A stretch of DNA of 61,067 nucleotides, filler included, from Basidiobolus ranarum (Eukaryota): the NCBI GenBank assembly GCA_040143965.1. It is 14 parts of 14 records of this genome, joined end to end, with 100 filler letters (N's around TTAATTAATTAA, not from the genome) between each part and the next. Parts side by side here need not be neighbours in the genome. Positions count along the whole stretch, not along the records: positions 56,811 to 61,067 come from JASJQH010002045.1; 13 more parts are not named here. The stretch is one strand, 5' to 3'. The position numbers were made by a program, and so were the translations under genes. Below the pieces are notes generated by a model. That model had not been told where the DNA came from, did no database searches, and saw nothing but the letters and a program-made list of their open reading frames with translations. The first letter of the stretch is position 1; every line of letters begins with the position of its first letter. Of the stretch, positions 1-61,067 are shown piece after piece.

Positions 1-433
1 CTAGTGTTTCATAATGCAGGAGCTGTTGTGCCCAATTGAAAATCAGGATACTGTGTTAGTGAGGGACAAATGATTGGCCTAAAAACATGTGAATGTCTTG
101 GTTATACATTTCATTGGGTAAGTTGCAGTATAAATTGTTTATTTTTACACATTCAGTAATTGGTAAGTTACAAACTAGGGGATGAATTTACTTTGTCAAT
201 TACCCAAAATTGTAATTTGGCAATATTAAATCAGGTAACTTGGTATGGGCTGGCACAATAACTCCAAAAAAATCATCGTGTCCAATTGTGGTGGGATAGT
301 GCCATATTGTTCCTTATAGTGTCCGATTGAGTGTTATAGGACGCAGCCATGGTAATTGACAGATCACACCAGATGGTGTGCTAGCAAGCTGGATTGAGCA
401 GCACAATCTGACCTGGCCCGGTGGAACAAGTCT
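1..433 (-). mobile_element. Non-autonomous DNA transposon of the GGACTTGTTCCA-TIR family (truncated by contig start)
   Basis: Ends in TGGAACAAGTCT (422-433), the reverse complement of the family TIR. 1-433 is the reverse complement of ~42911-43346. Interrupts a CCCTA-type terminal sequence. Confidence 0.8.
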
Positions 434-3555: not shown

Positions 3556-4281
3556 CCCTAACAAAAATTTGAGGATTGTTATTGTAGGAAAACTATCACA
3601 ATTTTAATCCATTTGGAATTGACCATTTGCTTACCATCATCAAATCTTCAAGTTAGATTTGATCTTAGTCAATTTTTTCAGTTTCAGGAGAGAAATTTCA
3701 AGATCTCACAAAATAGTTGAGCATGATTAACTACATTCAAAGAGAACTATGGATCAACACATGTGCAAAAAATGTTACTCAAATTTTTCACAATCATCAC
3801 TTGAATACCAATTTTACGCCTTTGAAATCCCTAGTTTCTTGGATATATTTTCCTGATATTTTTATAGAGTTCTTCATAGCCAAGGTTGCGCTCATACACA
3901 ACAAAAGTTTGTATCAATATCTCCATCAGAGCCCACCATTGTATTAACATTGCTGAATCAATACTCTTCCAGCCATCTGGCAGATACCCTGCAATATTTT
4001 GCCACTCTGTATTAAGGTCTTCCCAGATATCTGCATGGTCAACACCAGACTGAATATCAAATTGAATGTTCTTTTTCTGTAGCCACTTTCTGCTTACTTG
4101 CACTGCATATTTCCCTTCATACTTTTGAAAATACTCCTGAAGCACTTTGACTATGTTTGTATGTTCCTGTAGTATGACACTAATGAGGGTGCTTTGTGGT
4201 GTTTGTGTGGCTTTTTGCTTACCTTTAAGTTTGGGGCAAATTTCAACACTTTGAAAGGTACCAGTTGAGGTTGGAGAGCCA
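3556..4281 (+). mobile_element. CACTA/CMC-type element end (CCCTAACA...) inserted in copia integrase, with a minus-strand ORF remnant (3831-4145)
   Basis: Copia reading frame stops abruptly at 3555. CCCTAACAAAAATTTGAGG starts at 3556 and matches 39002 and the reverse complement of 434-726. Confidence 0.65.
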
Positions 4282-4381
4282 NNNNNNNNNNNNNNNNNNN
4301 NNNNNNNNNNNNNNNNNNNNNNNNNTTAATTAATTAANNNNNNNNNNNNNNNNNNNNNNNNNNNNNNNNNNNNNNNNNNNN
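4282..4381. other. Artificial contig-joining spacer (N44-TTAATTAATTAA-N44); first of 13
   Basis: Equivalent 100-bp spacers at 8662-8761, 13040-13139, 17414-17513, 21787-21886, 26160-26259, 30531-30630, 34901-35000, 39269-39368, 43631-43730, 47992-48091, 52352-52451 and 56711-56810. TTAATTAATTAA gives stops in all six frames. Confidence 0.99.
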
Positions 4382-4729
4382 CTACAATTTGTATGTGCGC
4401 TAACTAATTTTCTTGAACGAAACCCCGTTTACTTTCGTATTGGAAATCTCCCTTGCATGCTCAGAAATATCTGAAGGATTTTCAAAACTGAATGAAAATC
4501 TTCAACGACATCCAGTCACATAACTAATAGATGAGGTATAAAAATTGAGTTGATATTCCAAAAGGTCAGAAATATCCATAGATTCCTCTCCTAGCTCAAT
4601 TCCTTGGCCTTTGACGAAAATTACTTATTAAATATCGAACTCTACCGTTTATTCAGATATCCATCTGTGACTGAACAAAATTCAGATAAATTTATTGATG
4701 AGTGGAAAGAAGGTTTGAGAGTAGATAGA

Positions 4730-7847: not shown

Positions 7848-8003
7848 GGACTTGTTCCATTGTGCCAGCATTTATCGGACCTTGGCTCAATATATTAGAG
7901 TAATTGTGATTGAAAGGGTAGGGTTGTGCCGCATAAATTTTAGAATACTTTATCCAATATGATATATACAGCACAATCTGGCACTATCACTGGAAACAAG
8001 TCC
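7848..8003. mobile_element. 156-bp MITE, GGACTTGTTCCA family
   Basis: TIRs GGACTTGTTCCA ... TGGAAACAAGTCC, flanked on both sides by AAT (3-bp TSD). Homologous to 18129-18308 and 18386-18567. Confidence 0.9.
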
Positions 8004-13339: not shown

Positions 13340-14940
13340 GGCCAAGTTTGCATGCTCAGAATGCAATCTGTTGATATATAGCCTGCGTAAGTTTTGAGCT
13401 TAGATCCCAGTAGCTAATTTAGTAATATTCTGAGTGGTGATAGTGCATCCAGCCTTGCTGAACATAAAATTTAGTCCTTGAGTTGTTGCCTGGATTACTG
13501 AGAGTAGATTCTGGGCTATATTTAGTACATGGAGTACATCATCTAATTTGGCAGATGGTGTAGTTGAATACTGGGCAAAATGAAGCACAACTCTGGCCTG
13601 ACCAACTGCATCTAGTGCATAGTCATCACCTAAGTACACTCTCCGTGTTCAGACAGGTTTTAAGCCGGAAAACCAAGCTTGCTGGTTTGACATATATTGG
13701 GAAGCTCCTGAATTGATTGACCATGTTTCTGGGTCCTCTTTAGTGGTTACTGATAGGGCAGACCCAAATAGATGATCCCTATCAGTGCTTACTTGATTAG
13801 ACTGTTCCTGTTTTAGCTTGTGGCCAATATCATTTTTCTCCAATCTTTGATTAAGAGGCCTGGCTTTGTGCAATACTTGCCAATGATTGATTTCCCATTG
13901 GGAGCACCATTATTGAAGCCTGTTGGACATTGTACAGCTACAAAAAATGCCCAAACTGCATTATTTTGCTGACAATTAGATCTTCTTAATTCCTCATTCA
14001 AAAGCCTGGCACCAACATATTCCATTATTGCTGGCTCTGATCTTGCTGGCAGGGTAATTATGAGGTTCCCATATTTGTCTGGCAGGCTCCCAAGTAGCAT
14101 CATGACTAAGTCATCTTCACTCAGAGGTGCTCCAATGGATGAGAGCTGATCTGCCTTAGTTTCCATCCAATTTATATAATGAAGCTTAGATTCATACAAA
14201 TTAATCTGAATTGAGAACAATTTTTACTTATGATATAGCCAATTAACCAGACTTTTAGTCTCATATAGTGCTTCAAGTGTTTCCCGACCAGTTTGGAAAC
14301 TTTTAGCTGAGTGTATGGGCCTCAATTGAGATTATCTGAGATATAGACAAAGTGTAGAGTGTACTTTTGTCAGCTTCTTATGAAAGACAAGGATAGCTTC
14401 TGGTGGATCCTTTGGCTCTATTTAGTCCCCAGTAACAAATCCCCAAAGGTCTTTGTCTTCTGGCACCATTTACATCTGGAATTTTGAAAGCTGAAAGTCT
14501 TTGCCATCAAACTTCTCTGTTGAAGCAAAAACATTGGTAATAGTACTGGTAGACATTGCATTAACAACTACCTTGGGGCTAATAAAACGATAAAAGTGTT
14601 TACAGGATTTGAAAGTGTTTTGGACAAGAATTTAATTTTGTGACTTAGACACTTAAGTTTTATTGAATTGAATATGTTGTATTTATAGTTTACTACAAAA
14701 TAGAACTATTGGATGTGGTATGATCATAATAAACATGCCTGTCAAGCAGGGGTTCAACCTGGAGGTGATATGGTGAAAATTTGAGAAAATGATGAAAATT
14801 GATAACAGTGATCTAATTGATAGAAATATCAATTAGAGCAATAAACACACATATTGGAATGACAGAATTGAGTGCTAAATAGTCAGTATAAGAATAAACT
14901 AACTACTCAACAATGAGTTGCTATTTCCCTCATTTCAACT
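13340..14940 (-). mobile_element. Degenerate Ty1/copia 5' part: LTR family B (14588-14940), degenerate PBS, gag-protease
   Basis: Gag MSTSTITNVFASTEKFDGKDFQL..KDLW from 14556, LLGSLPDKY, zinc-knuckle remnant, protease WSINSGASQYM, LDDVLHVLNIAQNLLSV. PBS-like TTATTAGCCCC next to the LTR. Confidence 0.88.
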
Positions 14941-14949
14941 GGCAACAAT

Positions 14950-15890
14950 AATTAATTGGAGTAATTCACACAATTACAGTCTGTTGTGAGCCTCAGAATC
15001 TTTGGTGCTGTAGTACAACCAAAGTTCTCAACCACCATGAAGCAAGTTGCTTATTAATTCTTGCCAGTTTTGATTTTGTGATTACATATCAATCATGTAG
15101 CCAGCAAGGAAAACCTGATGCCTTGTCAAGGAGAGCCGAATATCAGCCTAGAGTATGGGACCAGGCATTTGGCCAACAAAATACTTCTCTACTGAAGCCC
15201 CACCAACTTCCAATTAGTGCAACTGCTCTTTTTTGCTTAGTTCAAGCAAGTTCCATGAAGACATCCTCAAACTTCAATCTGAAGCCACATTGGTAGTACC
15301 ATTGAAGAAAGCCCAGGACACACCCAAAGGCCCCTCAAGCTCGAACATGTACCACCACTTCCTCATCATAAATGAACTCTTGTTCTATAAGAAGCACCGT
15401 TGCATCCCAGACCACACTTTAGACTCAAAATCATGCAGGAGAGACATGAGTCATCACTTGCAAGACACTTTGGTGTTGCCAATTCATGTATCTTGGCATC
15501 CAAGGATTGTTGGGGGCCAAAAATGTTGGGCGTATATCAAGATATATATTTCCACCTGTGATACTTGTGCTTTAGTAAAGACTACAAGGCATCAGCCCTA
15601 CGGCCTCTTGCAGCCACTTCCAATCCCTGATCAGAAGTCAAAATTCACATCCTAGAATTTCATCACTGACCTACCCTCATCTGCCAAATGAAATGTAATT
15701 CTGTTATTTGATGATTGTTCAACAAAGATGGCCCACTTTGTGACATGCAACAAGTCAATTGATGCAAAGCAAATAGTGGAATTGCAACAAGTCCATTGAT
15801 ACAAAGCAAACAGCAGAATATATAACTCAATATATCTTCTATCTACATGCAGTCTCTGAATCTATCATCCCTGACCAATAATCTCAATTG
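14950..15890 (+). mobile_element. Degenerate Ty3/gypsy pol fragment (RNase H end, integrase)
   Basis: QQGKPDALSRR, integrase zinc-finger YISTCDTC, HQPYGLLQPLPIP, KMAHFVTCNKSIDAK; frameshifts and stops throughout. Confidence 0.88.
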
Positions 15891-15899
15891 GCTTGTTAA

Positions 15900-17413
15900 C
15901 TCCTTCTGCTAGGCCATCAGATTGGGAATGGAAGGCAGGATGGAGATTAGTAAAGATACCCAAGGTTTAAAGAAGACATTTCCAGAATTTGGATATAAAC
16001 TGAGATTCTTGGTTAGAGATAATAGTTTCAGGAAGTGCATGTAGGCAAAAGATATTTTGAGTTATAAATTCTGCTGTTTGCTTTGTATCAATGGACTTGT
16101 TGCAAGGCGCCAAGTGGGCCATCTTTGTTAGATGGTCAACAATTACCAAAATTGGATCAAATTTGGCAGCCTAGGGTAGGTACATGATGAAATCTACAGT
16201 TATGGATTTCCACTGCTGATCAGAGATTGGAAGTGGCTGTAGGAGGCTATAGGGCTGATGTCTTGGAGTCTCTGCTTGAGCACAAATATCACATGTGGAA
16301 ATATAAATCTTGACAAATGCAAACCTCTTGGGCCACCAATAGTCCCTGGAAGCCAACATATAAAATTTGGCAATACTAAAGTGTCCTGCAAGTGATGAGT
16401 CATGCCTTTTCTGCATGTTTTTAAGTCTGGAAGTGTTATCTGGAATCAAGAGTTGCTTCTTAAAATAAAGATATCATTGATGATGGAGAAATGGTGGTAC
16501 ATGAACAAGCTGGCAAGGTCTTTGGATGTATCCAGGGCTTTCTTGTTTGATATTATCAATGGGTCTTCATATTGAAATTTGTGTATGTCTTTGTGGAATG
16601 TGTTTGAACCAGGCAGAAAAAGAGCAATTGCACTAATTTGAAGTTGGTGGGGCTTTGGTAGGGAAGTATATTACTGGCCAAAGGGCTTATTCCCTTCTTT
16701 AGGCTGATATTTTGTTCTATGCAACAAGGCATCAGGTTTTCCTTGCTGCCTACTTGCTCAATAAAAAACAACAAAATTAAAAGTGGCAAGAAATAATGAC
16801 CATCTAGCTTGACAGTGCTTGAAATCTGTGGTTACTCTAAAATAATGAAGACACATATGATAACAACAGACAGCAATTATGTGATTAGCTCCATCCAAGT
16901 ATTGTTTCCATGATTGATATGCTGCAATAATTGCTAACAGTTCCTTGTCATAAGTGTCATAGTTGATTTCTGTTGCAGAGAACTGTCTTGAGTAGAAGGC
17001 AACATGATGAGGTAAGTTGTCATCACTCTACTGTGATAGTACGGCTCCTAGAGCAAAGTCAAATGCATCAGTTTCAACCATGATTGGCTTGTCCAGTTTG
17101 GGGTGTACCAGAATTAGTGCTGAGGTAAAAGCATTCTTTAAAGTTACAAATGCTTCTTGGCAAGATATGTTCCAGTCAAATATAAGTTCTTTCTTGGAAA
17201 GGTTTGCTAATGGGGCTGACATTTTGGAGTAGTTCTGGACAAACCATTGGTAAGAACTTTCAAGTCCAAGGAACAATTGAACATCCTTCACATTCTTGGG
17301 AGTAACCCCAGACAGAACAGATTCAACCATTGTAGGGTCCATGGGGATGGCTGATGTAATAATGTTATATCCAAGGAATTCAACTTGAGCTTGATGAAAT
17401 TCACATTTCTCAA
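15900..17413 (-). mobile_element. Degenerate Ty3/gypsy pol fragment (RT end, RNase H, integrase), inverted relative to 14950-15890
   Basis: VKDVQLFLG, VETDAFDFALGAVLSQ, HDSSLAGHF..DYWWP..CDICAQ, QWKSITVDFI, VIVDHLTKMAHLAPC. Confidence 0.9.
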
Positions 17414-18128: not shown

Positions 18129-18308
18129 GGACTTGTTCCATTGTGCCATGATTAATTGGACCTTGGATCAATCTATTAGAGTAAAAATGATTGAATTTGA
18201 TCATGCCAGAGGGAGATGGATAGTGCCAAATTGTGGTGCATTAATTTTAGAATACTATCCTATATGATATATACAGCACAATCTAGCACTATCACAGAGA
18301 ACAAGTCC
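18129..18308. mobile_element. 180-bp MITE, GGACTTGTTCCA family
   Basis: TIRs GGACTTGTTC ... GAACAAGTCC with ATT on both sides. Removing it restores copia RT PDI/AATVGTVSQY. Confidence 0.92.
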
Positions 18309-18385: not shown

Positions 18386-18567
18386 GGACTTGTTCCATTG
18401 TGCCAGGATTTATCAGACCTTGAATCAATAAATTAGAGTAAATGTGATTGAAATTGATCATGCCAGAGGGTGATGGATAGTGCCAAATTGTGCTGCATAA
18501 AGTTTAGAATACTTGATCCAAGATGATATATACAGCACAATCTGGCACTATCACAGAGAACAAGTCC
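18386..18567. mobile_element. 182-bp MITE, GGACTTGTTCCA family
   Basis: Same TIRs, flanks AAT/ACT (TSD with one mismatch). Removing it plus 3 bp restores copia QIFRYLRGT. Confidence 0.9.
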
Positions 18568-19967
18568 ACTATTCAGGTATTTGAGAGGAACTGTAGAACT
18601 ACTTCTGGAATACTCCGGCACTCCTGATGCCCAAAATTTTGAAGGCTATAGTGATGCAGACTGGGAAAGAAGCCTTGCGTATAAAAGAGCAACAACTGGG
18701 TACATTTTTCTTTATGGCAATGGAGCTATTACTTGGACTAGTAAGCTGCAACCAACTATACCTCTTTCCACTACAGAAGCAGAGTAAATGGCTGCCTCTG
18801 CTACTATACAAGAAGCTATGTGGTTAAGAAAGTTATTTACTGACTTAGGATACATGCAAAAAGTGCTATTACTGTATTTGCAGGTAATAAAAGCTGAATT
18901 TCATCAGCTAAAAACCTTACATTTCACACTAGAACAAAACCTACAGATATTAGGCATCATTTTATTAGAGAAGCAATTGAGAGAAGATAATTGAACTTGT
19001 CTATTACACTACTGAAGAAATAATTGTTAACATCTTAACCATACCTTCAGCTAAAGCACAATTTGAATTATAAAGATAAAATTTACATATGAGAAAAACT
19101 CAAAATAGTTGGTTGCAAAGGAATGTTGAAGTTGGTAAGTAGAATCTAGTTATTTAGTGGTAGTTTATTCATATTCTGACTATTTAACACCCAATCATCC
19201 CATTTAAAGATTTGTGCTTATTGTTCTAATTGATATTTCTATCAATTAGAGCCCTTTTATCAATTTGCAGTATGTTCTCAAAGCCTCTCCAAATCATCTC
19301 ATAATTTCACACATACTTAACAGGCATCTTTGTTATGCTCTGAGCACATTCAATAGTCCTATTTTGTAGTAAACTATATATAGGAATTACTCAATTCAAC
19401 AAAACTCAAGTGACTAATTAACAAAAACCAAATCCTGTCCTTCACACTTCCATATCCCACAGACACTTTTATCAATAATTTTGATTCAAAAATTAGTTTG
19501 TTCCTAGAATTGGTGAAAATTTAATAAACCATGCCAAATATGAAGTTCAAAAATTTCCTTTGCATGAATATTGTCAAAGACCATTAAGAAGCTGCTGTCT
19601 CACCAATAAAATCCCTAGCAGAATGCAGCCCACCAATATTGTGTTGGCTCTGCTAACTTTGCAATCCAGAAGAGTGGATCTAATCTAAAGTTTGATCAAG
19701 CATAATGCACTCCACATTAAGCCGTTTCAATATGAATGCATAACAAATGACTCAGATTAACCTATGATTAACTTTGTTGATGCAGTTTGTTAAATGATTT
19801 CTATACAATTACTCATAAATGAATGATTAGGATATTTAGTGCAAACAAAAGTTTTATTTTACAAAATGTAGGGATTTACCATCATATTTGAAATTCTTAG
19901 ATGAATATCTTACACAAGCTGGATTCATCTCTATTGTGCCAGCCCAATCCAAGATTAGTATCATGGT

Positions 19968-21520
19968 TGATAGCAGTGCTTTGTGGATTTGGAGGTGTTT
20001 TGGACAAGATTTGAATTTGTGACTTACACACTTAAGTTTTATTGAAGTGAATATGTCCAACTTATAATTCACTATGAAATAGGACTACTGGACTTGATTA
20101 GGTCATAACAAACATGGCTGTTAAGCATGTGTGAAAATTTGAAGTGATTTGGAGAAGTTTTGAGAAAATAGTTAAAAGTGGTAAAAGTGATCTAATCAAT
20201 ATTTCTATCAACTTGAGCAATGAACACAAGCTTTTTGATGGCAGAATTTATAGCTAAATAGGCAGAATATGAATAAAATAACTATTAAATAATGGGTTGC
20301 TGTTTACCTAATTCAACATTCTCAGTGAACAAATTATATTGAATACCACTTGAACCTAACTTTTATCTTGATAATTTATATTGTGCATTAGCTAAATATT
20401 TGGTCAAGAACTGAGCATCATTTCTTCAGTAGGGCAATAGACAAGTTCAATTATATCATTCTAAGTTGCTTCTCTAACAATATGAAGCCTAATATATATA
20501 CATTTTGCTCAAGCATGAAATGTAGGGCTTTTACCTAATGAAGTTTGACTTTGATTATCTTCAAATACAGTAATAGCACAACTTCACATGTATTTCAAGT
20601 CTGTGAATAACTTTTGTGACCACCTAGCTTCTTATGCAGTTGCAGAGGCAGCCATTTACTCTGCTTCTGTAATAGAAAAAACTATGTTTGGTTACTTCTT
20701 AATATACCTAGCTATGGCTCAATTATCATAGAGAAAAGTGTACCCAGTTGTTGATCTTTTATAATCAACCTTTCTTCCACAATCTGCATCACTGTAACCT
20801 TCAAATTATTTTGCATCAGGAGTGCAAGAGTTTTCTATGGCTATATTTACAATTCCTCTCAAGTACCTGACTATTCCTTCTACTGCAGTTTTGTGCTTGG
20901 CTCTGGGACTTTTGAGATATTGGCTGATGGTTCCCACTGCCCCAGCAATATCTGATGTGTTACAACCACTACATATATCAAACTAACCACCATGTATTGA
21001 TAAGGGAACTGCTGGCTTTAATATGAGCTACTTTGGCCAAATTGAGCAATATTTTGATTGATTTCACATTTGGATTATTTGGTGTTGATGCAGGCTTGCT
21101 TCTCTCCATGTTGAAGCATTTTAGAATGCCTAGGATGTATTTACACTGATCCAGCATGATTTTTTAATGCGCTTATCTCTGTTGATTGGATTTCAAAGAA
21201 TTAACATAATTCACCCATATCAGTCATCAGAAATTGATTTGATAAGCTGTTTTTGTCTGATTAAGTGCTTTTATATCATTTGTGGCTGTGATCAAGTCAT
21301 CCACATATAGGCCAATTACAAGGATCCTGTTTCTGGTTGCTTGATATATACTCTTTGAACTGCTATACATCTTTAGAATTCCAGTAATTCCAAAGCGGTA
21401 ACTATCTTGTTGTGACATGCCATGGATGTTTTCTTGAGTTCATAAGGTCATTTGTATAGCTTACATGCCATATCAGGGTGTTTTGTGGCAACAAATCCAT
21501 ATGGTTGCTCCATATATATC
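19968..21520 (-). mobile_element. Degenerate Ty1/copia RT-RNase H plus 3' LTR family B (19968-20318)
   Basis: IYMEQPYGFV..CKL, VIGLYVDDL, EGYSDAD, SITEAE on the minus strand. The LTR is the reverse complement of 19124-19474. Confidence 0.88.
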
Positions 21521-21786
21521 CCACATCCAGGGAGACACCATGACAAAAGGCTTTGGGTTGAGAGGCATGCACCATTTGTAAGATATGAGAAGACTATGGC
21601 TGATTTGGCATATGTTGGGGAAGAATGCAGAAGGCTAGGATGTGTCACTGCTAACAAGAGGCCCAGAGGAGGGATACTCACAGAGAGGCAAAAGCTTTAT
21701 AATGACATTTTTTCCCATTTTAGAGCAAGAGTAGAACATAGCTTTGGTTTCCTAAAGAGATATAGCATTGTAGCAGGAAAGTATAG
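21521..21786 (+). mobile_element. DDE_Tnp_4 (IS5/PIF-Harbinger-like) transposase C-terminal fragment
   Basis: PGRHHD..MADLAYVG..KRPRGGILTERQKLYNDIFSHFRARVEHSFGFLK. Near-identical to the reverse complement of ~60270-60535. Confidence 0.85.
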
Positions 21787-22069
21787 NNNNNNNNNNNNNN
21801 NNNNNNNNNNNNNNNNNNNNNNNNNNNNNNTTAATTAATTAANNNNNNNNNNNNNNNNNNNNNNNNNNNNNNNNNNNNNNNNNNNNATAAGGTAATCTGG
21901 ATGAACTGACACCAGATTGCCGAGAAGGGATGGCACAGTAGATATGATGTCATAATCTAATAATAGAAGAGTTCCATATGCAGTGGATCAGTATGCCGAG
22001 ATCAGAATCATGACAGGTATAGAGCAGAGAGTTGACAGTTATACTTTTTCCATGATTCAAGCAAACATA

Positions 22070-30630: not shown

Positions 30631-30932
30631 ACCGTTACAGCTTCTGGTGCTTCAGCTTCGTTTTCTCCGGGAACCATTACAGCTACTGGTGCTTCAGCTT
30701 CGTTTTATACGGGCACCCTTACAGCAGCTGGTACTTCAGCTTCGTTTTCTTCGAGCACCGTTACAGCTGCTGGTGCTTCAGCTTCGTTTGCTACAGGCAC
30801 CATCACAGCAGCTGATGCTTTAGTTTCGTTTGTTGTGGGCATTGAATTAGCCGTCAGTACTTCAGTTTCGTTTGCTACAGGCATCATCACAGCCGCCGGT
30901 GCTTTATCTGATATTGCATTAGTAGCTGACAT
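30631..30932 (-). CDS. Ala/Glu/Val-rich tandem-repeat protein (14-aa/42-bp units), 3'-truncated, with an in-frame TAA
   Basis: MSATNAISDKAPAAVMMPVA-NETEVLTANSMPTT-NETKASAAVMVPVA-NEAEAPAAVTVLEE-NEAEVPAAVRVPV*-NEAEAPVAVMVPGE-NEAEAPEAVT. TATA-like TTATATAA at 30973-30980. Confidence 0.55.
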
Positions 30933-32819: not shown

Positions 32820-33862
32820 AAAAACATATTGGGCTCAAAACTGATTTATACATAATAATAATTAAAGTGAATGCAGTGGAATTGTCATTTAAAAATGTAT
32901 GCAAAAATATGAACCAATCATCAGCGCTAGTATAAGTATCACTCGAGGACTTGATTGACAAAAGCTGTTTTTCTAGTATCTAGATTTGCCACTAGATAAG
33001 ATATTCTCAAGGCCAAAAAGATAGAATATATTTGAAATGCTTCAGTCAGCAATTTGCTTTGCATTAATAGACTTGCAGTACAGGATATCTAGAGAATAGC
33101 ACAGCATACATGAAGTAACGTTTTCATAAATGAAAATTGTTTCAAGAATCAGAAAGTGTCAAGAATTTCGTAACATTGCTGATTCTGAGAAGGTAACGAC
33201 ATCTAAATTCGGTTAGTGTACCGAAATAACGCAACATTGCTGTGGGACCTGCACCGATATTGAGTGACACAAGGACTTAGGATTAAATTTCAACCAGTAC
33301 AAGAGTGGGGTTGGGGTTAGGGCTACTAGCGATGTTGCTAGTTGTATTTAATCTTATTTTACTAGTCCTAAGATAAAACTCAAAAGCCCATCCGATAACA
33401 AAATTCCAAAAACGGAATATGTCGACTTTCAACAAGTTGATTATTAATGTACAAAAGCCAACAAATTTTAAACTTAGTTACTAATCAGTGCAGCTGCTTT
33501 GTTCCTATCAGCATATATACCTCGGGTTTTCTATGACCAATAGCCGAAATATCGCACTTCATATATTACAGATAGTATTCTTTACCTTTCCCAAAGAAGG
33601 AATTCCCATTGACCAATGGCTGAAACCTCGCTTCTGTGGAAGGATTGGACAGAAGCAGGAGTGAAGGTACCTTACCGATCTGTTCTAGAATTGAATAGAA
33701 CAATCCCAATTAGGTTTTTGGAAATGGCATCAAATGATATAAAGCATCCAGTGTCGCCATGATATTGAGCAACTCATTTCAATATTATAGTAGATCGACT
33801 CGACACCCACTTAATCTAATTATTTCTTAACACTAAATACATCACATACGTTACATACAACA

Positions 33863-34900
33863 ATGTCAGCAAATACCGACCTACAGGATGTGTTGGTTTC
33901 ACGGCCCGAACAGAACTTTCTATATAGAGCTATCATGCAAATAGAAGGGATGACCTGCTCATCTTGTGTTAAAACCACTGAGAAGGCCTTGGCTGCCATC
34001 GACTCCATCGTCACAGATTCTATTAGTGTCAGCTCCCTTACTGGCCGTGGAGTAGCTGATTTTGCAATCGATGACCGTGTTCAGTTGAGTAAGACTATTG
34101 AAAAATCCATTTCAAATATCGGTTATGAGCTAATGGATTTGCAATGGGAAGTCATCGCGAAACCATCACGAAACAACAATGCAGTAGCCATGAGTATACC
34201 AGACTCTTTGACCCAAGCGTTTCAGTATCGCGCTACCATGCAAATTGAAGGAATGACATGTTCTTCATGCGTTAAAACTGCCGAGAAGGCCTTGATCGCC
34301 ATCGATTCCATTCTTCCCGAATCCATTAGTGTTAGTGCCCTTACTGGTCGTGGTGTAGCTATATTTACTAATGGCGATCAAGAAAGCCTTGGGAAGATTA
34401 TTGAAGAATCTATCTCCAATATCGGATACGACTTGGTTGACTTACAATGGGAAACTATCGGCCAAAAGCCTGCCAAGACCCAAGTCTATCTGAGTCGTGC
34501 CACTATGCAAATTGAAGGGATGACCTGTTCTTCCTGTGTCAAAACCACAGAAAAGGCTCTTTCTGCTATCGATTCTATTGTCGAGGGTACTATCAGCGTT
34601 AGCTCTTTAACCGGTCGTGGTGTTGCTACTTTCGCTCGAGAAGATCAAGAGCAGCTAGGAGAAATTATTAAAGAATCTATCTCTAATATAGGCTACGACC
34701 TGGTCGATTTACAATGGGAAACCATTCAACAAGAAAGCGGCTCCAACGATACAAATAATGAGGGGGGTGAAAACAATAGCACGATCACCACCAATTTGAC
34801 AATTTCCGGTATGACCTGCTCCTCCTGTGTAAATAGCATCGAATCCAACCTTCAAACCCAAGATGGTATCATCTCCTGTCAGATTAATTTACTCATGCCT
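33863..34900 (+). CDS. CCC2: Copper-transporting P1B-type ATPase N-terminus (4 HMA domains), 3'-truncated
   Basis: Four GMTCSSCV motifs in HMA folds. The ATPase core lies beyond the contig end, so the CCC2 versus other P1B assignment is inferred. Confidence 0.72.
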
Positions 34901-35000
34901 NNNNNNNNNNNNNNNNNNNNNNNNNNNNNNNNNNNNNNNNNNNNTTAATTAATTAANNNNNNNNNNNNNNNNNNNNNNNNNNNNNNNNNNNNNNNNNNNN

Positions 35001-35948
35001 TCCCATCTGGGCATAACCACCGAGAATAAGAATGTCATCATTTCTTGGTACAATGAACTCAAATCTTCCCTCGTCAGCCTTTCTTTTCTCTTCGGCAGTG
35101 GCGTTGGCATCGGCATCGCGTTGAGAGATTGAGATACAGCTTTCAATCTTCTTGAATTTCTTTCCATCATTCTTCGCATGAATAAGGATTCCACGGAGAG
35201 GCTTCATCTTCTCATCGCCACATAGTTCTCTAGATGCCATACCAGTGCAGTTGACAATGATGTCAGCCTTGAATCGTCTCAACAAATCAGGAGTTTCTTC
35301 ATGAAGAGTGTCTTCAACGACGCCCTGGAGAAGTACAACGCCTTTGTCTTCAACCAATTTTCTCAACCAATGAAGATAATTTCCAGGATCAACAACATAT
35401 GACAAGTGCTCGTAGCCGTCAACAATGTTGTAACCCTTCTTTTCCATATTGGTATTGATCTTGTATTTCTTGATTAAATCTTGAACATCGTCGTTGAATC
35501 CATCACACACAATTTCAATTTCACTTTTCTTTTTCAATCCTCCAGGAGTGAGTTTGCGATCAAAGAGGAAGCATGACATACGCTTACGAATGCCAGTATC
35601 ATCCGCACCAAACTTATCAGCAATATCCTTGAATTGGAGGTAGGAAATCTGGCACCAACGCTGCAAGTTTTTCAACTGTTCATCGGTATCCTTTCCATGG
35701 GAGCCACAAACAGCAGGAGGCCATTCCCACAATGCACCAGCAATCTCAGAGACTATCTCGTCACCATGCGCTCCATGTTTAGCGTACTGTTTTGCTAATA
35801 CCGTGACTTTACATCCGGAATTGCGTAAAGTCCAAGCAGTAGTAAGACCCGAGACACCACCTCCAATGATGAGAACATGAGGCTTGGTGCCATCGGCACG
35901 AGTGATTTTTACTCTCTTGTAAAGATCTCCAGAGTTCATTTTTTGCAT
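35001..35948 (-). CDS. FAD-dependent D-amino-acid oxidase-like protein, 3'-truncated
   Basis: Rossmann VLIIGGGVSGLTTAW, SEIAGALWEWP, VDPGNYLHWL, ADIIVNCTGMASREL, MKPLRG, FIVPRNDDILILGG. ATG at 35948 with TATAAAA ~100 bp upstream. Confidence 0.88.
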
Positions 35949-38900
35949 CTTGTGTTGTTTGGTTTTGAAAGTCCTCTTCAAGTTTTGGTGAATACGGAGA
36001 TAGCTAGAAGCTAGATGATATGTTGAATATTAGTAAATCCAATGTCTTTTATATCTTCCAAATGGAAAACCAACTCTAACTTCAGGAATGGCTTTACTCT
36101 GTGGTGTAACCAGTGGTATATCCCATTTCTGGGTCTTGTTGCTTCTCTACATTCATACTGTTTGAAAGAAATCCGGCACGGAGCCCGTTGAAAGGTCCAG
36201 TTACTAGGACTACATTTTCAAGTAACCCTGGTATAGGGTCACAAAACTGGCTAAACGCAACGTGAGAAAGAATGAATTGGTTGGATAGATTAAGTATAGA
36301 TTAATGAAATATACATTCTCTCCTAAACCAATTGTCAGGCATGGTATGGGTGCTAATATGTGATGTATATTCCATGTGAGAATGATTCATTGAAAATTGG
36401 GAAATTACGAAGCTACGTGTTAATATACGATAAATTCAAACATGAATCTGACGTTACTAAAGTGAGCTGATTAATAAGTGCTTTAATTTATCGATGGCAC
36501 AAAGGTAATATACGTACAACGGTACTACATATTTCTTCAAAGTATCAACATAATGAATGTACCTGTCGGTCGCCTGTCTAAGGGACGCTATTCCGTTTAT
36601 GGAAAAAAACTGGAATTTCTGGAGTGCACATCCATTCTTCACATCATGAATCTTGCAGTAATTCTGGGCGATAAGATGCATGAAGGGTGTAGAACATTCC
36701 ATGTGTATCTTTCTTTTGGTGATTAGACACGGTCTAGACAATTTCCTTTAGAATATTCAGAAGTTATTCCCATGGATATTTTTAGGTAACTGCTCCAAGA
36801 AGACGCCGCTCCAAAAAGATCCCGCTATGAATGAATCAGGTGTTTATCAGAAAGGCCGTATTCATCTCATGGCTAGTATAGTATCTGAATATGCATTATC
36901 AGTAACCGCAGTGTTGGGTATTATATTAACTAATACCCACGCAGTAAGTCAAATCTATATTCCACATCACACAGTTAGGCAAATATGGTATTTTCTCATT
37001 CAGCCCTACAGATGCCCTCCAATTGTTACTATTATAAGCATAACGAAGTTGAGTTTCGAGTGATTTTTCTATAATAAAACTGAACCTCGGGTGATTAATC
37101 TATAGAGGGTGATTCACTACTGCCATGGAAAAACTACGCATATTAAGCTTGTAACTAAAAGCATTATAATAGAATAATCAAGATGTCATTCTAGAGCATG
37201 TAGAGGCGCGCAGGTCACAGTTTTCATCGATACACGTAAATGATATCTGATCTGAATTCTTGTAACTTCAGTACTTTGTTTTAAGAATTTACCACTACAT
37301 CAACTGTTACTTAGAATGAGCATGCTTATTTGAATGCACCACTCGTTACATAGTACGAGAATACACCACATGGTACCATTGTATGGTTGCTGTACTAAAC
37401 CCTTATATTGCACATTGTTTTTTTAGATCCTGCAGACTGAGTGGGGAAAGTAATAGGTGCACACAAATAACTAACTTCTGAGAAAGTAATACGTACCTAC
37501 AAATTACAAATTCACCTCTGGGGACAACAGATACCTCTAAATTTGTAAGAGTTGAAAACCAATTCAGTATGTTGAAGCTACAGAACCCGCTAATAGATAT
37601 TCTAGACAGAGTCAATAATGTCTGCTCCAAACGAGTTAGTAAAGCAATGGGATGGAACTGGCTATGATGAAATAACTACGAAACATCAAGATATGCATGA
37701 GGTTGGGTTTTTCCAAACATGCGTATTCTATGCCCTTCCAAATTGTACCACCTATTTCATAAAGCCCTAAGCTCAGCATTTTAACCTATGGCTTAAACTG
37801 CCACCAAGAGTATCACAACAATGCCTTGATATCTTTATTAAGACCTCAACAGAATGTACCCTCCTCATTGACCTACTCCGGGTCAACACCTTCTCGAATA
37901 CAATACCGAAAGCATTAGAATATATTGCATTGAACACCTGCACCTACCAATAAAAAATAGAGTCATCACTATTGACTTTTATATCTAAACATCTTTGATT
38001 TCAAATATGTAACCGAACTCCATAAGTAACACTCGTACCAACCGCTTAACCGGTTTTGTTTGTCCGATCACAAGTGTAATTATTCTCAAATTGCAATGTT
38101 AATTTTCATCTTAAATACATATAAATCACGGTATATCCTGTTTACTCGCAAGGGGTAGCTGTGCCTTCTCACTGGATACACTAAGCGAGGATGGCATATT
38201 AGCTTTAGTAATTATATTTCTACCAGTACAAGTACTCAGCAGTGCTCAACATTCAGTTGTAGCACTGAGGATCTCTCTACTGTTTGCACTGAAACTCTTA
38301 CGTTTTAGTGACTTTATGTGGCCAAAGTCAGAATTTCACTTATAGATAATCGTTGGAAGTGAGTGACTCTATACTTATGCAGATGAGTCCAAAGACTCTC
38401 ACATGTGAAATATACAGGCTTAAAAACTAGGTAATAATAAAGTGATAACTAGATATACCTATGGGAAAATACTTTTTTTGGTTTAAATATATAGTATGGA
38501 AGATTTAGACTAAAATGAGCAATTCTATTCCTTGTACCAAGTCTCATTTTGGACTTTAAAATCTTGACTAAATGAGTGAAATGGCATGCAAAATACAACT
38601 GCAAATTTTAAATATGGTTTAAATGTAAGATATCTTTAACTGAATAATGGGTTATTTGATGAGGTGAAAATCTCATTACAGTGTATGTACTCATATTAAT
38701 AGATTTTGACATTGCCTGCTGTGTGTAATTTCAGAGGAATATCTTAGGGGAAGGATGAGTAGCACTTAGTGGTGTGAGCTTTATTTTGCTTATTTACAAA
38801 CCTAAACAAAGTGACAATTAAAACATCATTCTTTGAAGATATTGTGACAATATTGGATTATATCGATACTTAACTTGATGACGAATGTTATCAAGTTCTG

Positions 38901-42910: not shown

Positions 42911-43630
42911 AAACTTGCTTCTTTGGACCAGGTCAGATTGAGCTGCTTGATCCAGCCTGCTAGTACACCATCTGGTGCAATCTGTCAATTACCATGGCTA
43001 GGTCCTATAACACTTGATTGGACACTATAAGGAACAATATGGCACTATCCCACCACAATTGGACACAATGATTTTATTGGAGTTATTGTGCCAGCCCGTA
43101 CCAAGTTACCCAATTTAGTATTGCTGAATTACAATTTTGGGTAATTGACAAAGTAAGTTCATCCCCTGGTTTGTAACTTACAAATTACTGAATGTGTAAC
43201 AATAAACAATTTATACCATAACTTACCCAATCAAATGTATAACCAAGACATTCACATGTTTTTAGGCCAATCATTTGTCCCTGACTAACACAGTATTCTG
43301 AATTTCAATTGGGCACAACAGCTCCTGCATTACAAAACACCACTAGTTTTGGCACACTGGTGACAAATCACAGCACTCAATGATGGATCAATCTGCAGTA
43401 TAATAGTAGTGATCAGGATCACCTGATTCATCATTTTTAGATCAGCAAATTATTCAATCAATCATGTAAGCTTCTAATTGGGTGAAAATGTGAATAGATT
43501 GAGCCATATCAAGCCAATACGGCTGCACAAGCTTTTTATTGACAGATATTGCTCATTTGATTGTAGTGAAATAGTTTGAATTAATAGGCTATCATTCATT
43601 TTTTTGATATATGACAATTTCACACTATCA
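42911..43630 (+). mobile_element. Longer non-autonomous element of the GGACTTGTTCCA family inserted in the CACTA transposase
   Basis: Starts with degenerate TIR AAACTTGCTTC right after ATT. 42911-43346 is the reverse complement of 1-433. The homologous transposase at ~58699 continues uninterrupted after GCTATT. Right boundary not seen. Confidence 0.72.
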
Positions 43631-43730
43631 NNNNNNNNNNNNNNNNNNNNNNNNNNNNNNNNNNNNNNNNNNNNTTAATTAATTAANNNNNNNNNNNNNN
43701 NNNNNNNNNNNNNNNNNNNNNNNNNNNNNN

Positions 43731-45118
43731 GTAACCTTGTCACTAACGGAAGGCTTATAGGTAGTAGTATGCTTGTTAATCACGGTAGACCGATCAGTTA
43801 CAGTAGCAATGTGGGTAACAGTAGACTTGTCCGTGATGGTAACTTTGGTAGTTTCAGCGGGCTTGTGAGTCTTAGTAGAATGGTGATGGTGGGTCTTGCT
43901 AGACTTGGCAGATTCAGTAGATTTATCGCTTACAGTAGACTTATGAGCCTCAGTAGATTTATCGCTTACAGTTGGCTTAGTAGTATCGGAAGATTTGTCA
44001 CTGGAGGTAGACTTGTTGCTTACAGTGGGCTTAGCATTCTCACTAGATTTGTTGGTAGCGGTGGTCTTATGAACCTCGCTAGATTTGTCAGTAGCAGTAG
44101 ACTTGTGAGCTTCAGAAGACTTGTCGGTAGTGGTGGACTTATGAGCCTCACTAGATCTGTCAGTAGCGGTGGACTTATGAGCTTCAGTAGATTTGTTGGT
44201 GGTAGTGGACTTATGGGCCTCAGTAGATTTGTCAGTAGCAGTGGATTTATGAGCCTCAGTAGATTTCTCAGTAGCGCTAGACTTATGAACTTCACTAGAT
44301 TTGTCGGTAGCACTGGATTCATGAGCCTCGCTGGACTTTTCAGTAGCGGTGGACTTATGAACTTCAGTAGATTTGTCACCTACAGTGGGCTCAGCGGTCC
44401 CAGTGGATTTGTCACTAGTGGTAGTCTTATGAGACTCAGTAGATTTTTCACTATCAGTAGACTTGTGAGCTTCACTAGACTTGTCGCTTGCAGTGGGCTT
44501 ATGAGTCTCACTAGATTTTCCACGAGCAGTTGACTTAGGGGACTCACTAAATTTATCACTTGCACTGGGTTTGTGAGTCTCGGTGGATTTATCATTTACA
44601 GTAGACTTAGCAGATTCAGTAGGTTTGTCACTAGCGGTGAGCTTGGGAGACTCAGTGGACTTAGTACCGGCGCTGGCAGTTGACTTAGCAGATTTGGTAA
44701 GTTTGTCACTAGTAGTGAGCTTGGGTGACTCGGTGGACTTAGCACTGGCGCTGGCAGTTGACTTGGGAGACTGAGTAGGTTTGAGGTCATTCTTATGTGC
44801 ATTGTACCAGTTGCAAATAGGTGTTTCGAGATTTTTTGCTGCTGAAATATCCTTAGAAGTACATTTCGATATTGCAAAACACTTGGAACTACTACTCAAG
44901 AATGCGGTGGTTTTAGCATCACCATCACAGAGGCAAGCAAGAGATGGAATAAAGTCGACATTGGTTGAATCTTCCGTATATTGAGCAAAGCATTGTTTAC
45001 CAGCATGTACAGTACAAGAAGTTACACAATCACTGGGTGATGCATAAGGGAAATCAGTGGAAGCAGAGACAACAGTTGCGACAGCAATGCTGACTAAAAG
45101 TTTAGTTGCAAAATACAT
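43731..45118 (-). CDS. Secreted/cell-surface protein: 8-Cys CFEM-like domain plus Ser/Thr/Lys/His 12-aa repeat stalk, 3'-truncated
   Basis: Signal peptide MYFATKLLVSIAVATVVSA; C-x3-C-x7-C-x18-CxC-x15-C-x5-C-x15-C; then many DKS(S/T)E(A/V)HKST(A/T)T units (36 bp). Confidence 0.82.
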
Positions 45119-46083
45119 TGTTATGATGAAGAGTTTGATAATGTTTTTAATTGAAATATCTGAGAATATTTATATAGTTTACAAACTTTCGACATGGGGA
45201 AACTTGTGGTCGAAGTTCCCATAGTAAAATAAACTTGCTACTAGGGGAATCCTGGAACGAAGAAGTGGCAAATACTATCCAATAAAGTAAAAATAATGCC
45301 TGCAGTTTCATACCCATAGCTGAAATCAAGAAGTTTTCTAATTTTAGATTACACATTGAGTAGATAGCGATGAGAAGACTAGTTGATAAATATACAATTC
45401 AAGTTGCGGATAATTCGAACCCTACAAAAATGACAAATATATAGCGATATTGATTAGTTGATGAATTTTTCCTTTCTCGATTAGCACAGAGCATCCCAAT
45501 ATGAGAGAATCTATCTATGTGTAGTATATTTAGAGTTGGGTTTGTTCAGTTTATATATTAACATTACGACTGAGGTAAGTTATTCTCTACTATTACTGAA
45601 CTTTAGTCTCGGATTTCTACTTCTTACTTAGAATTCCAGCTGTAGCGGAATAACTATCACCGATCTCAGTACAAGTCAGGCGCTGTGAAGCTTCTCTACA
45701 CCTATGGCGCCATTTTTTCCTTTTGTGATAGTGCATAATTTATTAGTTAATTGCAATGCAGAAATGCGATCACTTGAATGACGTCAGAGTTCCTATTTCA
45801 CAATAAGATTCAATCATAACTTGATGTTACGACTCTTTGCTGATAAAAAGGATATCGACGAGTCTGTTCCATTAGTATAAGCTCAAGCTAGCTGAAAAGG
45901 GTTGACAAGTACTCTGCCTCTTGAGAAGAATACTGATGTTCCTTTCTTGGTGGTATGTCTGTTGCTCTTTAGCATTAGGTTTAGCCTGAATAAGAAAATA
46001 TTTCTCTGGGAAAAAATTTAAACAATTGTAAAATGAATAATTCATGACCAATGATACTCACTGGATGAGTGTTAGGCTATAAA

Positions 46084-56810: not shown

Positions 56811-59006
56811 CAAAGCAGCTTTGATTATTGAGGAGTGGAGAGTTCAATCCAATCTTAGAAACCAGGTGTCTATTGGTTTTCTGATACTGTTACCACATCT
56901 GATTGGGAACTGTTGCTTTCCACTGACCTGGTACAAGTGGGAAACACTTGTCAATTGTATGATGTATAATCCTTCAGTCATTAAACAACCTTTGTGTACA
57001 AATGGTTGTTTGGCTTTCACTGGTGATCTGAAAAACATGAAGTCATGTAAGGTTTGCACACAATTGGCAATCACTGAATCAGGTAGATATTGCTCATATT
57101 TGGCTCATATATCATTCCACAACTCAAAGTTTGGATGAAATCACCTAAATATAGAATATTGATCCAATTCCAAAGTACTCACTGTAAAGCTGATGGTATT
57201 GCCAATATATTAGATGGATATCACTACCAGAATCTGAATACTCAAGATTTCTTTGAGAACACATATGATTATGCTTTTACATTGGCTCTGGATGGCTTAT
57301 CACTGAACATGTATACCATTGGGAAAGCTTGCTGGCCAATAATTTTAATTAACTTTAATCTTCCTCCTTCTGAATAGTTTAAGAGGTATAATATTTTGCT
57401 ACTATCCATCAAAGCTGGACTATATTCACCAATGCATATAGATAGCTTCATGGAGCCTTTGATTGTTGAATTTGAATGGTTATCTAATGGGGTTCAGATT
57501 GGTGAACATTTTACTAAAGCTAATATCATTGTACATAATGGTGACACTCCTACCATCAGTAAACTTGGAGGTTTTTGTGGGCACAATGCACTATCTTGCT
57601 GTAGATTTTGTCAAATCAATGGAGTCTACTCACTCAGGCATATGCATTACTACTATCCAAATACAAAACTAAACTCCATGATTTTACCATCATGAGCCCA
57701 GTCAGATTTCAACATGATAGCTGATATCAATTCACCAAATAGTCAGTTTAACATTAAACTTGGTATTAGCTGTAAGCCCAAGTTTGTATTGCTAAAGGGG
57801 ATCAGCTGGAACCAGAGCTTCCAAATAGGCACTATGCACTTACTATTCAACAACATTCCAATACTACTTACTTGGCTATATAGTGACAATTCAATATGAA
57901 TGAGCCATTAAAGATAGGATAAAAGTTTGAACCAATTGGGAAAATACTTGAAAACATCAAGCTACCATCATATTCTACCAGGACTCCCATCAATATCCAT
58001 TCATCTAGGTGTTTATTCAAATGCAAAGACTGGAAGCATTGGATTTGTATATATTCAAATGGAGTCATGAAAAGATTTCTGCCTGATAAGTATTGGCAAC
58101 ATTGGGAGTTGTTTGTCAATATTGTTGATATATTCTTATGGCATCAACTGACATTGGCAGATCTCAAGCAGATACAGTGACTGTGCAACAACTTTGTAAT
58201 TGGATATGAAAAATTTTATTACAGGTTTAAAGAAGATAGACTGACTCTATGCCAGTATTCAACATATTCCCTACTGCATCTTTCACAATGCTTAGAGATT
58301 ATAGGCTTTTGCTATACATTCTCGGAGTTCCCAATGGAGTGCACCTGTGGTGAAATGATGCTCTGTGTGAAATCATTAGTATTACTATTTGCTAATCAGA
58401 TTAACAATGTATCAGCAAAATCTGTGGTGGAAGTAATGTGATGGGTTAAGGAGACTCCAGAGTTTATTAACTTTTTAACAAAGGGCTCTTGTCAATGTGC
58501 TCATAGATTTTTGCATTGTTTGAGCACAATGACAGCAACAAAACTCAATCCTTAGACACATAGTAAGTTTCTCTATAATTCAGTATAATTTGTTTGTGTG
58601 ATAATCTAAACATATATCTAGGAAAACTGCAAGACAGACTTCTTTGTGAGATAGATCAAGATATGTAGTATTTCTGTTTCAGCCATGGGGTAAGCTATTC
58701 AGGAAATGACACATCTGCTTCTGGCAGGACACTTGTTGACTGCAAGTTGGGGATAATTTGGCTGAATTCTTTGAAGAAATTTGCCAAAATCAAGAGCTTA
58801 TTCTCATTGTGAATGGTACCAAGAGTTACCTATTTGCCAAGTGTCAGTGCTATTCAACATTTCAAATGCTTAGCTATTCTTCCACTATTAGTTTGCTGAT
58901 AAAGCGTTTCAATATTGTTGAGTTATGTGTGATCAGTCAAGTATGTGCATGTGTAGAGACTCAACACAACAAGATTCTTGTATTTTTTGATTCTCATAAT
59001 TGCTAG
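56811..59006 (+). mobile_element. Degenerate CACTA/EnSpm (Transposase_21/Tnp2-like) transposase
   Basis: C..GC.AF..C..C, ILDGYHY, LALDG..CWPIILINFNLPPSE, IDSFMEPL, GDTPTISKLGGFCGHNALSCCRFC, TMHLLFNN, EFPMECTCG; multiple stops and frameshifts. Confidence 0.9.
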
Positions 59007-59329
59007 AATACAAAGCCTAAAATATCAGAATAAAGGTATGAATATTAATTCAAATTCCTACAGCAGTACACCCAGTAATTGCCATTTGAAAATTAGATTT
59101 TGCCGAACTTGCCGGATATTAATTTATGTATGCCAAATGTGAGGATCATTATATTAGCATGTATGAATACTGTCAATTTACCATCAGGAAAACACCATCA
59201 CACCTTCAAAATCCCTGGCAGAATGCTAGTCACCAATATTGTGATGGCTCTCTGACAGTATTGCAATCAACAAGGGTAGATCCAATCCAGATCCAATTGA
59301 TTTTATTTTTGTTAGGGGGATAAAGGGAG

Positions 59330-59959
59330 AAGTATTCTGCCATAGCTCAAGTACAGCTTTGAGAAGGTCTTGTATCATTGTTGAGTGACTGTCCATATGT
59401 TGACTAGTGGCTTTAGAATTCTGCATTCATTGCATTATTGTGGTGTTATTGCTTGTCATGCCCTGTATAAGAACTTTGTAGTTTTTATTTATGATCACAA
59501 ACAAATCATTACCGTGTTCTTCCTGCAATTCCCTTATTGTAATAATTCTATCCATATTTTCTATGGAGGGTTGTTTAGCAGTTGACAAAGTAGCCATTTT
59601 GGAAGTTGATGTGATTGATGGTGTTTCTGTTGGACTTTGCTCAGCTATTGATGTACTATGTAAATGGGGGATTACAATCTCTTCACTTGCACTATTGCTG
59701 GAAAGAAATACCTCTGTTAAATTGATCATTACTTCATCATTACTTGTGCTAGTTTCCAGCATGCTAAGTCTTTTACAGTGGATAGTGGATTGCTAGACTG
59801 CTCATCAATTAAGTCCTCTGTTCTTGCTGGTTTTTTTTCCTTTTGCACCCACAGGCTTTTGCTTGGAAGTCAATTTTGATTTAGATTTTGAATGCTTTTT
59901 GAATAGCATTGAAATTTTCAAATGGTGAACTTGGTGCAGTGAAATTGCTTAGAAACAGC
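59330..59959 (-). pseudogene. Decayed CACTA-associated accessory ORF (convergent with the transposase)
   Basis: ORF pieces 59226-59426 and 59427-59762 are in one frame; homologous to 40050-40680. Confidence 0.5.
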
Positions 59960-61067
59960 AGACTTGTTCCATTATATTGAGCCAGATCAGGCTAGCTAAA
60001 AGTGTACTAGCACAAATTGGCACAAATGGGCACTATCCAGCATGAAGTTATTTACCACTTCAGAAACAGTAGTTTTACTTATGTGGTATATTTAGGAAAA
60101 GTACTTTTAGACATTATTGCACATTCAATAGATGATGAAAGCTCTATTGATAGTGTCTTAAGTCTAGGGCTCTCAATGGATATCTTTGAGTATGAATGTA
60201 TTGAGAATTAATCAAGATTTTGACTACTTTGCTTAACTTTGATTGAAGCCCACAAAATGATTTTCCTCCATACTTTCCTGCTGCAATGTTCATCCCTTTG
60301 GGAAACCAAAGCTATGTTCTACTCTTGCTCTAAAATGTGAAAAAATGTCATTATAAAGCTTTTGCCTCTCTGTGAGTATCCCTACTCTGGGCCTCTGGTC
60401 AGCTCTGACACATCCTAGCCTTTGGCATTCTTCCCCAATATATACCAAATCAGCCATAGTCTTCCCATATATTACAAATGGTGCTTGCCTCTCAACCCAA
60501 AGCCTTTTGTCATCAAGTCTCCCTTGATGTGGTCCACTAAACTAAATGATGATTCCTTCCAAATCTGTCAAAGCCTGGAACTTTACACAGTAAGCTTTGA
60601 ACTTGGCAGAATATAATAACTTTTGGTTGCTTTAAGAGCTGTTAATTCTCACAGGAAATGTGTCAAGAGTACTTCTGATATAAACCCTATTGGGAAATAC
60701 TCCAGGAAATGGAAGGAAATTAGAGTCTCTAAATCTTTTGTCCCAGGCACCTTCAACATCATTCATCACTGAAGCTAGATAATTTTCAGGTACTTGAAGC
60801 CTATGGTGGAAGCTTCTCCCACTTTGACAACCATAAAGAGTGCACTGAAAGCTGATTAGACAATAGTTTATGTAGTAACAAAACAAATTGACCAACTGCT
60901 TTCTGGTAGATATTGGAGTACATGAGCCACAGTATTTCTCAAATATAGCTTCTAGGGTGGTGATAAGAAAGCCAGTAGTTGCTTTTGGATTAATGAGGAG
61001 TCACCATTTAGAGTAGATGGAGAGTATGATATTAATCTTGTATTGAGCTGGCACAATACTGATTGAA
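59960..61067 (-). mobile_element. ~1.1 kb IS5/PIF-Harbinger-like element encoding a DDE_Tnp_4 transposase (decayed); putative parent of the MITEs
   Basis: Left end AGACTTGTTCCATT. Minus-strand frame STLDTFPVRI..LYSAKFKAYCVKFQALTDLEGIII*FSGPHQGRLDD..MADLVYIG..YNDIFSHFRARVEHSFG. The right end CTGGCACAATACTGATTGAA resembles the MITE end, cut just before CAAGTCC. Confidence 0.85.

Follow-up and report, generated by a model that had tools for sequence, protein, structure and literature searches.

The transposases of the PHIS superfamily are described as sharing the residue spacing D(19-29)K(29)D(18-40)D(11-19)P(18-28)R(3)E (PMC4122938), and groups within the superfamily are defined by their target site duplication, or TSD (PMC4482050). 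According to Han et al. 2015 (PMC4482050), the Pangu group has an ANT TSD, terminal inverted repeats (TIRs) of 11-40 bp starting with AG or GG, and two ORFs, one encoding a DDE-only transposase and the other a protein without recognizable motifs. Its fungal members, as given in Table S3 of that paper, are 2.6-5.1 kb long, together with one non-autonomous family of 199 bp. Pangu corresponds to Harbinger2 of Repbase (PMC12730594). The targets reported for NuwaI, NuwaII and Spy are CWG, C|TNA|G and, without a TSD, AAATTT (PMC4482050). Transposition of Harbinger is reported to need two proteins (PMC2836001), and large amplifications of CMC-EnSpm and of PIF-Harbinger transposons have been recorded, at the level of Pfam counts, in two Basidiobolus genomes (PMC5751038).

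In this study we analysed a window of 61,067 nucleotides of Basidiobolus ranarum DNA (assembly GCA_040143965.1), in which 14 short contigs are joined by N spacers, and describe an element on the last contig, C2045, which ends at 61067. The element represents a new, divergent two-gene PHIS family with a likely MITE partner; the family is dead and abundant. The explanation that we favor, and in which we have high confidence as a whole, is that of a cut-and-paste PHIS transposon with the anatomy of Pangu (Harbinger2), of which the window holds the left 1.1 kb, or first quarter, of a dead copy truncated by the assembly. The features concerned are listed here, L031 being one of two whole copies found.

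1..433, plus strand: right end of another family copy, ending in GGAACAAGTCT, 90.5% to L031 bases 3974-4405
7848..8003, plus strand: MITE of 156 bp with GG ends, TSD AAT
18129..18308, plus strand: MITE of 180 bp with GG ends, TSD ATT
18386..18567, plus strand: MITE of 182 bp with GG ends, flanks AAT/ACT
19685..19965, plus strand: diverged piece with transposase start and intergenic region, 78% to L031 bases 1068-1352
21521..21786, plus strand: transposase-gene piece of another copy, 97% to L031 bases 311-576, ORF 21446-21838
42923..43630, minus strand: right subterminal piece of another copy, 91.5% to L031 bases 3690-4393
56811..59959, plus strand: host repeat receiving the insertion, a decayed Tnp2/EnSpm (CMC) transposon, Pfam Transposase_21 at E 2.4e-12 (about 57240-57623)
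59957..59959, plus strand: target triplet AGC, predicted TSD of the window copy
59960..59973, plus strand: left TIR AGACTTGTTCCATT, 14 bp; whole copies have the same TIR at their other end
60144..61067, minus strand: decayed DDE_Tnp_4 transposase, about 310 aa in the family, first four or so codons absent
61049..61055, minus strand: TGGCACA / WGTGCCA motif within the first transposase codons, recurring in the MITEs and in the two subterminal regions

Other parts of the window contain a protein rich in Ser, Thr and Lys that looks secreted and has 36-bp repeats (43679-45169), a separate 42-bp repeat array (30631-30882), an ORF without introns that resembles FAD oxidases of the D-amino-acid oxidase type (34953-36029) and, on a contig neighboring that of the oxidase-like ORF, an ORF with four heavy-metal-binding repeats (33815-34948); the labels of the last two were given by eye.

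The left boundary of the element can be read from the repeat that received it, which has at least 42 matches in the genome (from 40 scored of 1142 candidates). All 24 flank paralogues fetched continue without the element at the exact insertion base, and 21 of the 24 carry AGC; position 59960 is therefore the true left end. The sequence-only reading had placed the TIR of the MITEs at this position: the start was right, as AGACTTGTTCCATT begins there, but the TIR resembles that of the MITEs without being identical to it. A search on other contigs for the right-hand partner of AGC, that is, the other end of the window copy, returned one chance-level match with 3 mismatches.

At the right, the same reading had seen an end about 7 bp short of CAAGTCC and, from this, a minimal element of IS5 size, about 1.11 kb, with a single ORF. 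In favor of such an element are a MITE-like motif close to the contig end and a short transposase, similar in length to four proteins of the bacterial IS5 family (277-326 aa). A family search with the 1108-base window piece gave 43 matches (from 40 scored of 517 candidates). Among the 44 distinct copies with 60 nt of sequence past the point matching 61067, 41 are colinear there, and in 3 the element resumes beyond small deletions; none stops at that point, and CAAGTC occurs within 20 nt of it in 0/44. The contig stops at position 61067, the transposase ATG of other copies lies about 13 nt past it, and the diverged piece at 19685..19965 represents sequence that falls beyond it. The resemblance to a MITE right end comes from the TGGCACA motif inside the first transposase codons, which is the source of the false boundary. 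Because the element extends past 61067 in other copies and has a second ORF, with whole copies of 4405 and 4177 bp, the description as minimal, single-ORF and IS5-sized is wrong; a compact element ending at 61067 is ruled out by 44/44 sister copies, and we give it practically no credence. Removing a false "minimal IS5-like fungal transposon" produced by a contig break is a gain for annotation.

Of the whole copies, L031 (4405 bp) is flanked by AAT on both sides and L033 (4177 bp) by ATT on both sides, and each has the 14-bp AGACTTGTTCCATT TIR at both ends. As only these two were found, the TSD rests on two pairs together with flank statistics: ANT adjoins 11/26 left ends and 24/35 right ends (35/61 overall, with an ANT background of 10%), and TWA adjoins 0/61. 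The AGC target of the window copy is not ANT. The first base of the long-element ends is A in 59/61 cases. End patterns matched the genome 306 times for the left and 321 times for the right end, the reversed controls giving 1 and 0, and the family thus has about 300 ends of each kind. The family majority sequence contains WGTGCCA 7 times; 500 shuffles gave it 0.7 times on average and never more than 4 times. Judged from its sister copies, the window copy would continue past 61067 for a predicted 3.1-3.3 kb or so of further element, followed by AACAAGTCT, AGC and TTATAAT.

The family is 4.2-4.4 kb long and decayed. Copies have a median identity of 92.4% to the majority sequence (70 segments), and C-to-T change reaches 43% at remaining CpG sites versus 4-9% elsewhere, a mutation spectrum from which we infer erosion by cytosine methylation. 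No copy with both genes intact was seen, though transposase frames of 289-319 aa are open in some. In one copy (L023; C4088:205-224) the first 224 bp are inverted relative to the rest and the transposase frame extends into the TIR. Copies often lie within, or 200-750 bp from, other family copies (L132, L141, L036, L114; C8152, C4199, C4688), and one MITE sits within L114; such clustering suggests nesting or local hopping.

The transposase frame in the window matches DDE_Tnp_4 with a Pfam E of 1.8e-11 (44 bits, cut-off 24.8), and its catalytic positions are D at 60662-60664, D at 60449-60451 and E at 60317-60319. It is broken by in-frame stops at 61001-61003, 60632-60634 and 60542-60544 and by one frameshift near 60300, so that the last 50 or so codons lie in a second frame ending at 60144-60146; the earlier observation of one decayed DDE_Tnp_4 frame with catalytic residues is borne out. 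In the L128 transposase the conserved residues are D117, K137, D168, D188, P208, R228 and E232, with spacings of 19, 30, 19, 19, 19 and 3. The AlphaFold model of the protein (pLDDT 92) is confidently that of a DDE transposase fold; among PDB structures it best matches Tn5 transposase (prob 0.98, E 0.017). For Pangu, the first D is expected between two strands, the second D between a strand and a helix, and the E in a helix; D188 and E232 of the model fit these positions, and D117 lies inside one long strand (111-123).

The second ORF, ORF2, lies on the opposite strand and starts about 330 bp from the transposase start. It has 149 matches in the genome and is open for 260 aa in L031; where the frame of that copy changes, most copies have about 4 nt more, which joins both halves, so that ORF2 is a single frame and the change in L031 is its own short deletion. 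The whole is a divergent frame of about 685 codons containing a 114-bp repeat present 5.4 times, that is, an array of 38-aa repeats. A Pfam search of ORF2 returned no family and no Myb/SANT domain, its matches in the Atlas were all sub-threshold (scores <0.9), and no homologue appeared among 1154 longer candidate proteins, which is weak evidence. Fold prediction gave no usable model (pLDDT 43), the N-terminal part being predicted as all-helical, and ORF2 shows no likeness to the Myb-like ORF beside the relative L158. On these results ORF2 was not classed as a Myb/SANT protein. The partner protein of Harbinger binds subterminal DNA. With chances that we consider even, ORF2 may be a putative stand-in for that Myb/SANT partner, binding the repeated subterminal WGTGCCA and recruiting the transposase.

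Whether the family also served the MITEs can be approached from both sets of ends. Genome-wide, the pattern of the MITE left end is matched 284 times. Tracing 31 ends gave 25 closed copies of 156-262 bp, most of them 182 bp long, with identical 3-mer flanks in 17/25, 13 of these 17 being ANT. The terminal base is G in the MITEs, whose loci were chosen by a G-start pattern, versus A in the long element. The two have subterminal words in common, such as GGATAGTGCCA, CAGCACAAT and WGTGCCA. An origin of the MITEs as deletion derivatives of the long element was rejected, the whole element giving no alignment to the window MITEs at E 1e-3 and, in a more sensitive comparison, just common words no longer than 17 nt. 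The genome has 117 places with DDE_Tnp_4 (PF13359), and all 70 that were checked belong to this family; a separate GG-ended autonomous parent was rejected too, with none in these 70 of 117 places and a G start at only 1/61 long-element ends. Cross-mobilization is plausible because the TIR core, the ANT target and the subterminal motifs are common to both, and the 70/70 places support, without proving, the family as the mover. Its proteins probably moved the GG-ended 182-bp MITEs in trans, in agreement with the earlier suggestion that the element was their autonomous partner. The window also contains a long inverted duplication (14940-15800 and 16067-16910), the arms of which have outward-facing GGACTTGTTGCA words and the same flank; these words perhaps belong to a third family of related TIRs.

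A search of 1.84 billion representative proteins returned 1499 matches to the transposase, 15 of them at E <=1e-30. The closest relative is 64% identical, and most of the other best 15 are near full length at 35-47%. The best relatives have a DT-F-P block at the first D and a GKY..H block in common. One relative (P0009) has a C-terminal chromodomain (E 9e-11), and a W-rich beta domain of about 50 aa ends many others (P0006, P0008, P0010, P0015, P0017, P0019, P0023, P0028; alignment A1, columns 540-600); it is Tudor-like by eye, with no Pfam match. These tails are possible chromatin-reading domains on PHIS transposases. Two metagenome relatives have back-to-back ORFs (L158:1662-2231 and 2659-3294; L157:2-796 and 647-1606), the partner ORF of L158 being Myb/SANT-like by eye without a Pfam match. 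At L162:1588-4748, a related transposase gene is disrupted in its 5' part by an element of 3.1 kb that has 33-bp TIRs and a DDE_3 ORF of 853 aa. No relatives of the transposase were found in viral contigs, and five pattern scans of such contigs gave 0 matches to core Pangu or canonical Harbinger reference sequences.

It had been proposed that the element was either an undescribed PHIS lineage or a bacterial insertion sequence acquired horizontally. Recent acquisition of a bacterial IS5/ISL2 element by the fungus has a precedent in the single-copy IS5-like element of a bdelloid rotifer cited in PMC3673617 and bioRxiv 2021.09.26.461848, and among references of known origin the bacterial ISL2-type proteins do outscore the Pangu proxies: the transposase scores 48-68 bits against four named bacterial IS5-family proteins versus 29-41 against six proxies with the core-Pangu motif. 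The named bacterial matches, however, are only 24-36% identical, most over about half of the protein, and none covers 80% of the query (15 listed of 261 plasmid records). The motif of the relatives, which we term the DT/GKY group, has 0 matches in 185,579 prokaryote genomes, a moderate negative because just 17/64 group members carry it; in metagenomes it has 9 matches, and for 7 of these the frame is DDE-type and at least 120 aa long. The three nearest Atlas clusters are eukaryotic, and a eukaryote-style second ORF is present. The chromodomain, the clusters and the motif counts suggest a eukaryote-like group. With bacterial matches this distant and nearest relatives that look eukaryotic, a recent bacterial transfer is unsupported and in our view very improbable. 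An undescribed PHIS sub-lineage may be what the transposase represents, since it did not group with the core-Pangu proxies in the tree.

This last point bears on the name of the group alone and does not conflict with the explanation favored above. The element could have the same anatomy and yet belong to an unnamed eukaryotic PHIS group, DT/GKY, some members having chromo- or Tudor-like tails, that descended separately from ISL2-type IS5 elements and has its ANT target by common ancestry, a proposal to which we assign somewhat less than an even chance. A quick tree built from 106 cores places the B. ranarum protein in a group of 67 (SH-aLRT 97) apart from the bacterial-type rows, and T or S follows the first D in 49/67 members. 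In a careful tree of 44 rows, 20 group members stay together (93/85) and are not joined to the six proxies. A GF[IV]DGT-type motif, as in core Pangu, was not seen in the best 150 of the 1499 matches, the block around the first D being blank for many rows. The chromodomain of one member, and the back-to-back ORFs of L157 and L158, also fit such a group. On the other hand, an AU test does not reject union of the DT/GKY group with the proxies (p 0.134), the proxies, six sequences of animal type that come from MAG contigs, lie on a long branch and are no curated Pangu set, and the tree has no canonical Harbinger outgroup; moreover, the groups of Han et al. (PMC4482050) are defined by TSD, and the element has that of Pangu. 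Nine contigs in five bacterial MAGs (L183-L191) have Pangu-motif transposases, several interrupted by intron-like inserts, and probably represent animal contamination; three of the nine loci (L183, L188, L191) were omitted from the tree on account of a core broken by introns. In the literature that we searched, with Repbase and subscription journals outside its range, no description of the DT/GKY group was found, and published figures or tree files may already place it.

Under the favored reading, a cut-and-paste PHIS transposon of Pangu anatomy, the transposase would cut at both TIRs and join the ends to a target with a 3-nt stagger, producing the ANT duplication; the same proteins would probably move the 182-bp GG-ended MITEs in trans, and copies would later have been silenced and eroded. 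The biology is modest, adding a further PHIS family that has two genes and a MITE partner. If the transposase group is separate from Pangu, it adds a branch near the bacterial ISL2 root of the superfamily, and the element becomes a clean case for the question, raised by Han et al. (PMC4482050), of the role of the second ORF in such elements. We tentatively propose, at a little under even probability, that an unnamed DT/GKY group, spread across eukaryotes, equally far from core Pangu and from bacterial ISL2-type IS5 and including some chromo- or Tudor-like fusions, has here its first whole representative, in which an orphan, repeat-bearing ORF2 would replace the Myb/SANT partner and the element would drive its own MITE family.

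Compared with known systems, the element is of PHIS type in having TIRs, a short AT-rich target and, in the L128 transposase, the conserved spacing with a K-D gap off by one. The target features of NuwaI, NuwaII and Spy are absent from its flank counts. With ISL2EU it shares the superfamily, an AT-rich target and two ORFs, but it has a 3-bp direct TSD rather than the 2-bp AT in A|AT|T, and neither a THAP domain nor a YqaJ ORF was detected. The ISL2-type elements of bacterial IS5 resemble it in their short transposase, the R-P...Q...Y-S-G-K block and an ANT-type target (PMC4482050), but form a separate group in both trees at 24-36% identity; compared with bacterial IS5 elements of about 1 kb and a single transposase gene, it is four times as long, has a second ORF and is present in some 300 copies in a eukaryotic genome. 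Canonical PIF/Harbinger elements with Tourist MITEs (Ping/Pong, mPing) likewise have a DDE_Tnp_4 transposase, a second ORF, a 3-bp TSD and MITE partners, but the TSD here is ANT, with TWA at none of the 61 ends, and no Myb/SANT domain was detected in ORF2. From Pangu the element differs in having DT, not DG, at the first D (G follows in 12/14 Pangu rows of Fig. S3 in PMC4482050, counted by eye) and GKY where core Pangu has GHK; in an ORF2 of about 685 aa, longer than the 170-592 aa of Table S3 (PMC4482050) and holding the 38-aa repeat array; and in a transposase not grouped with core-Pangu proxies (proxies only, no outgroup; p-AU 0.134). It resembles Pangu in its ANT TSD, a 14-bp TIR starting with AG, two ORFs, a DDE-only transposase with an orphan second ORF, a size within the 2.6-5.1 kb of fungal autonomous members (PMC4482050), and a non-autonomous partner of about 200 bp, comparable to the 199 bp of Pangu_PStr (PMC4482050).
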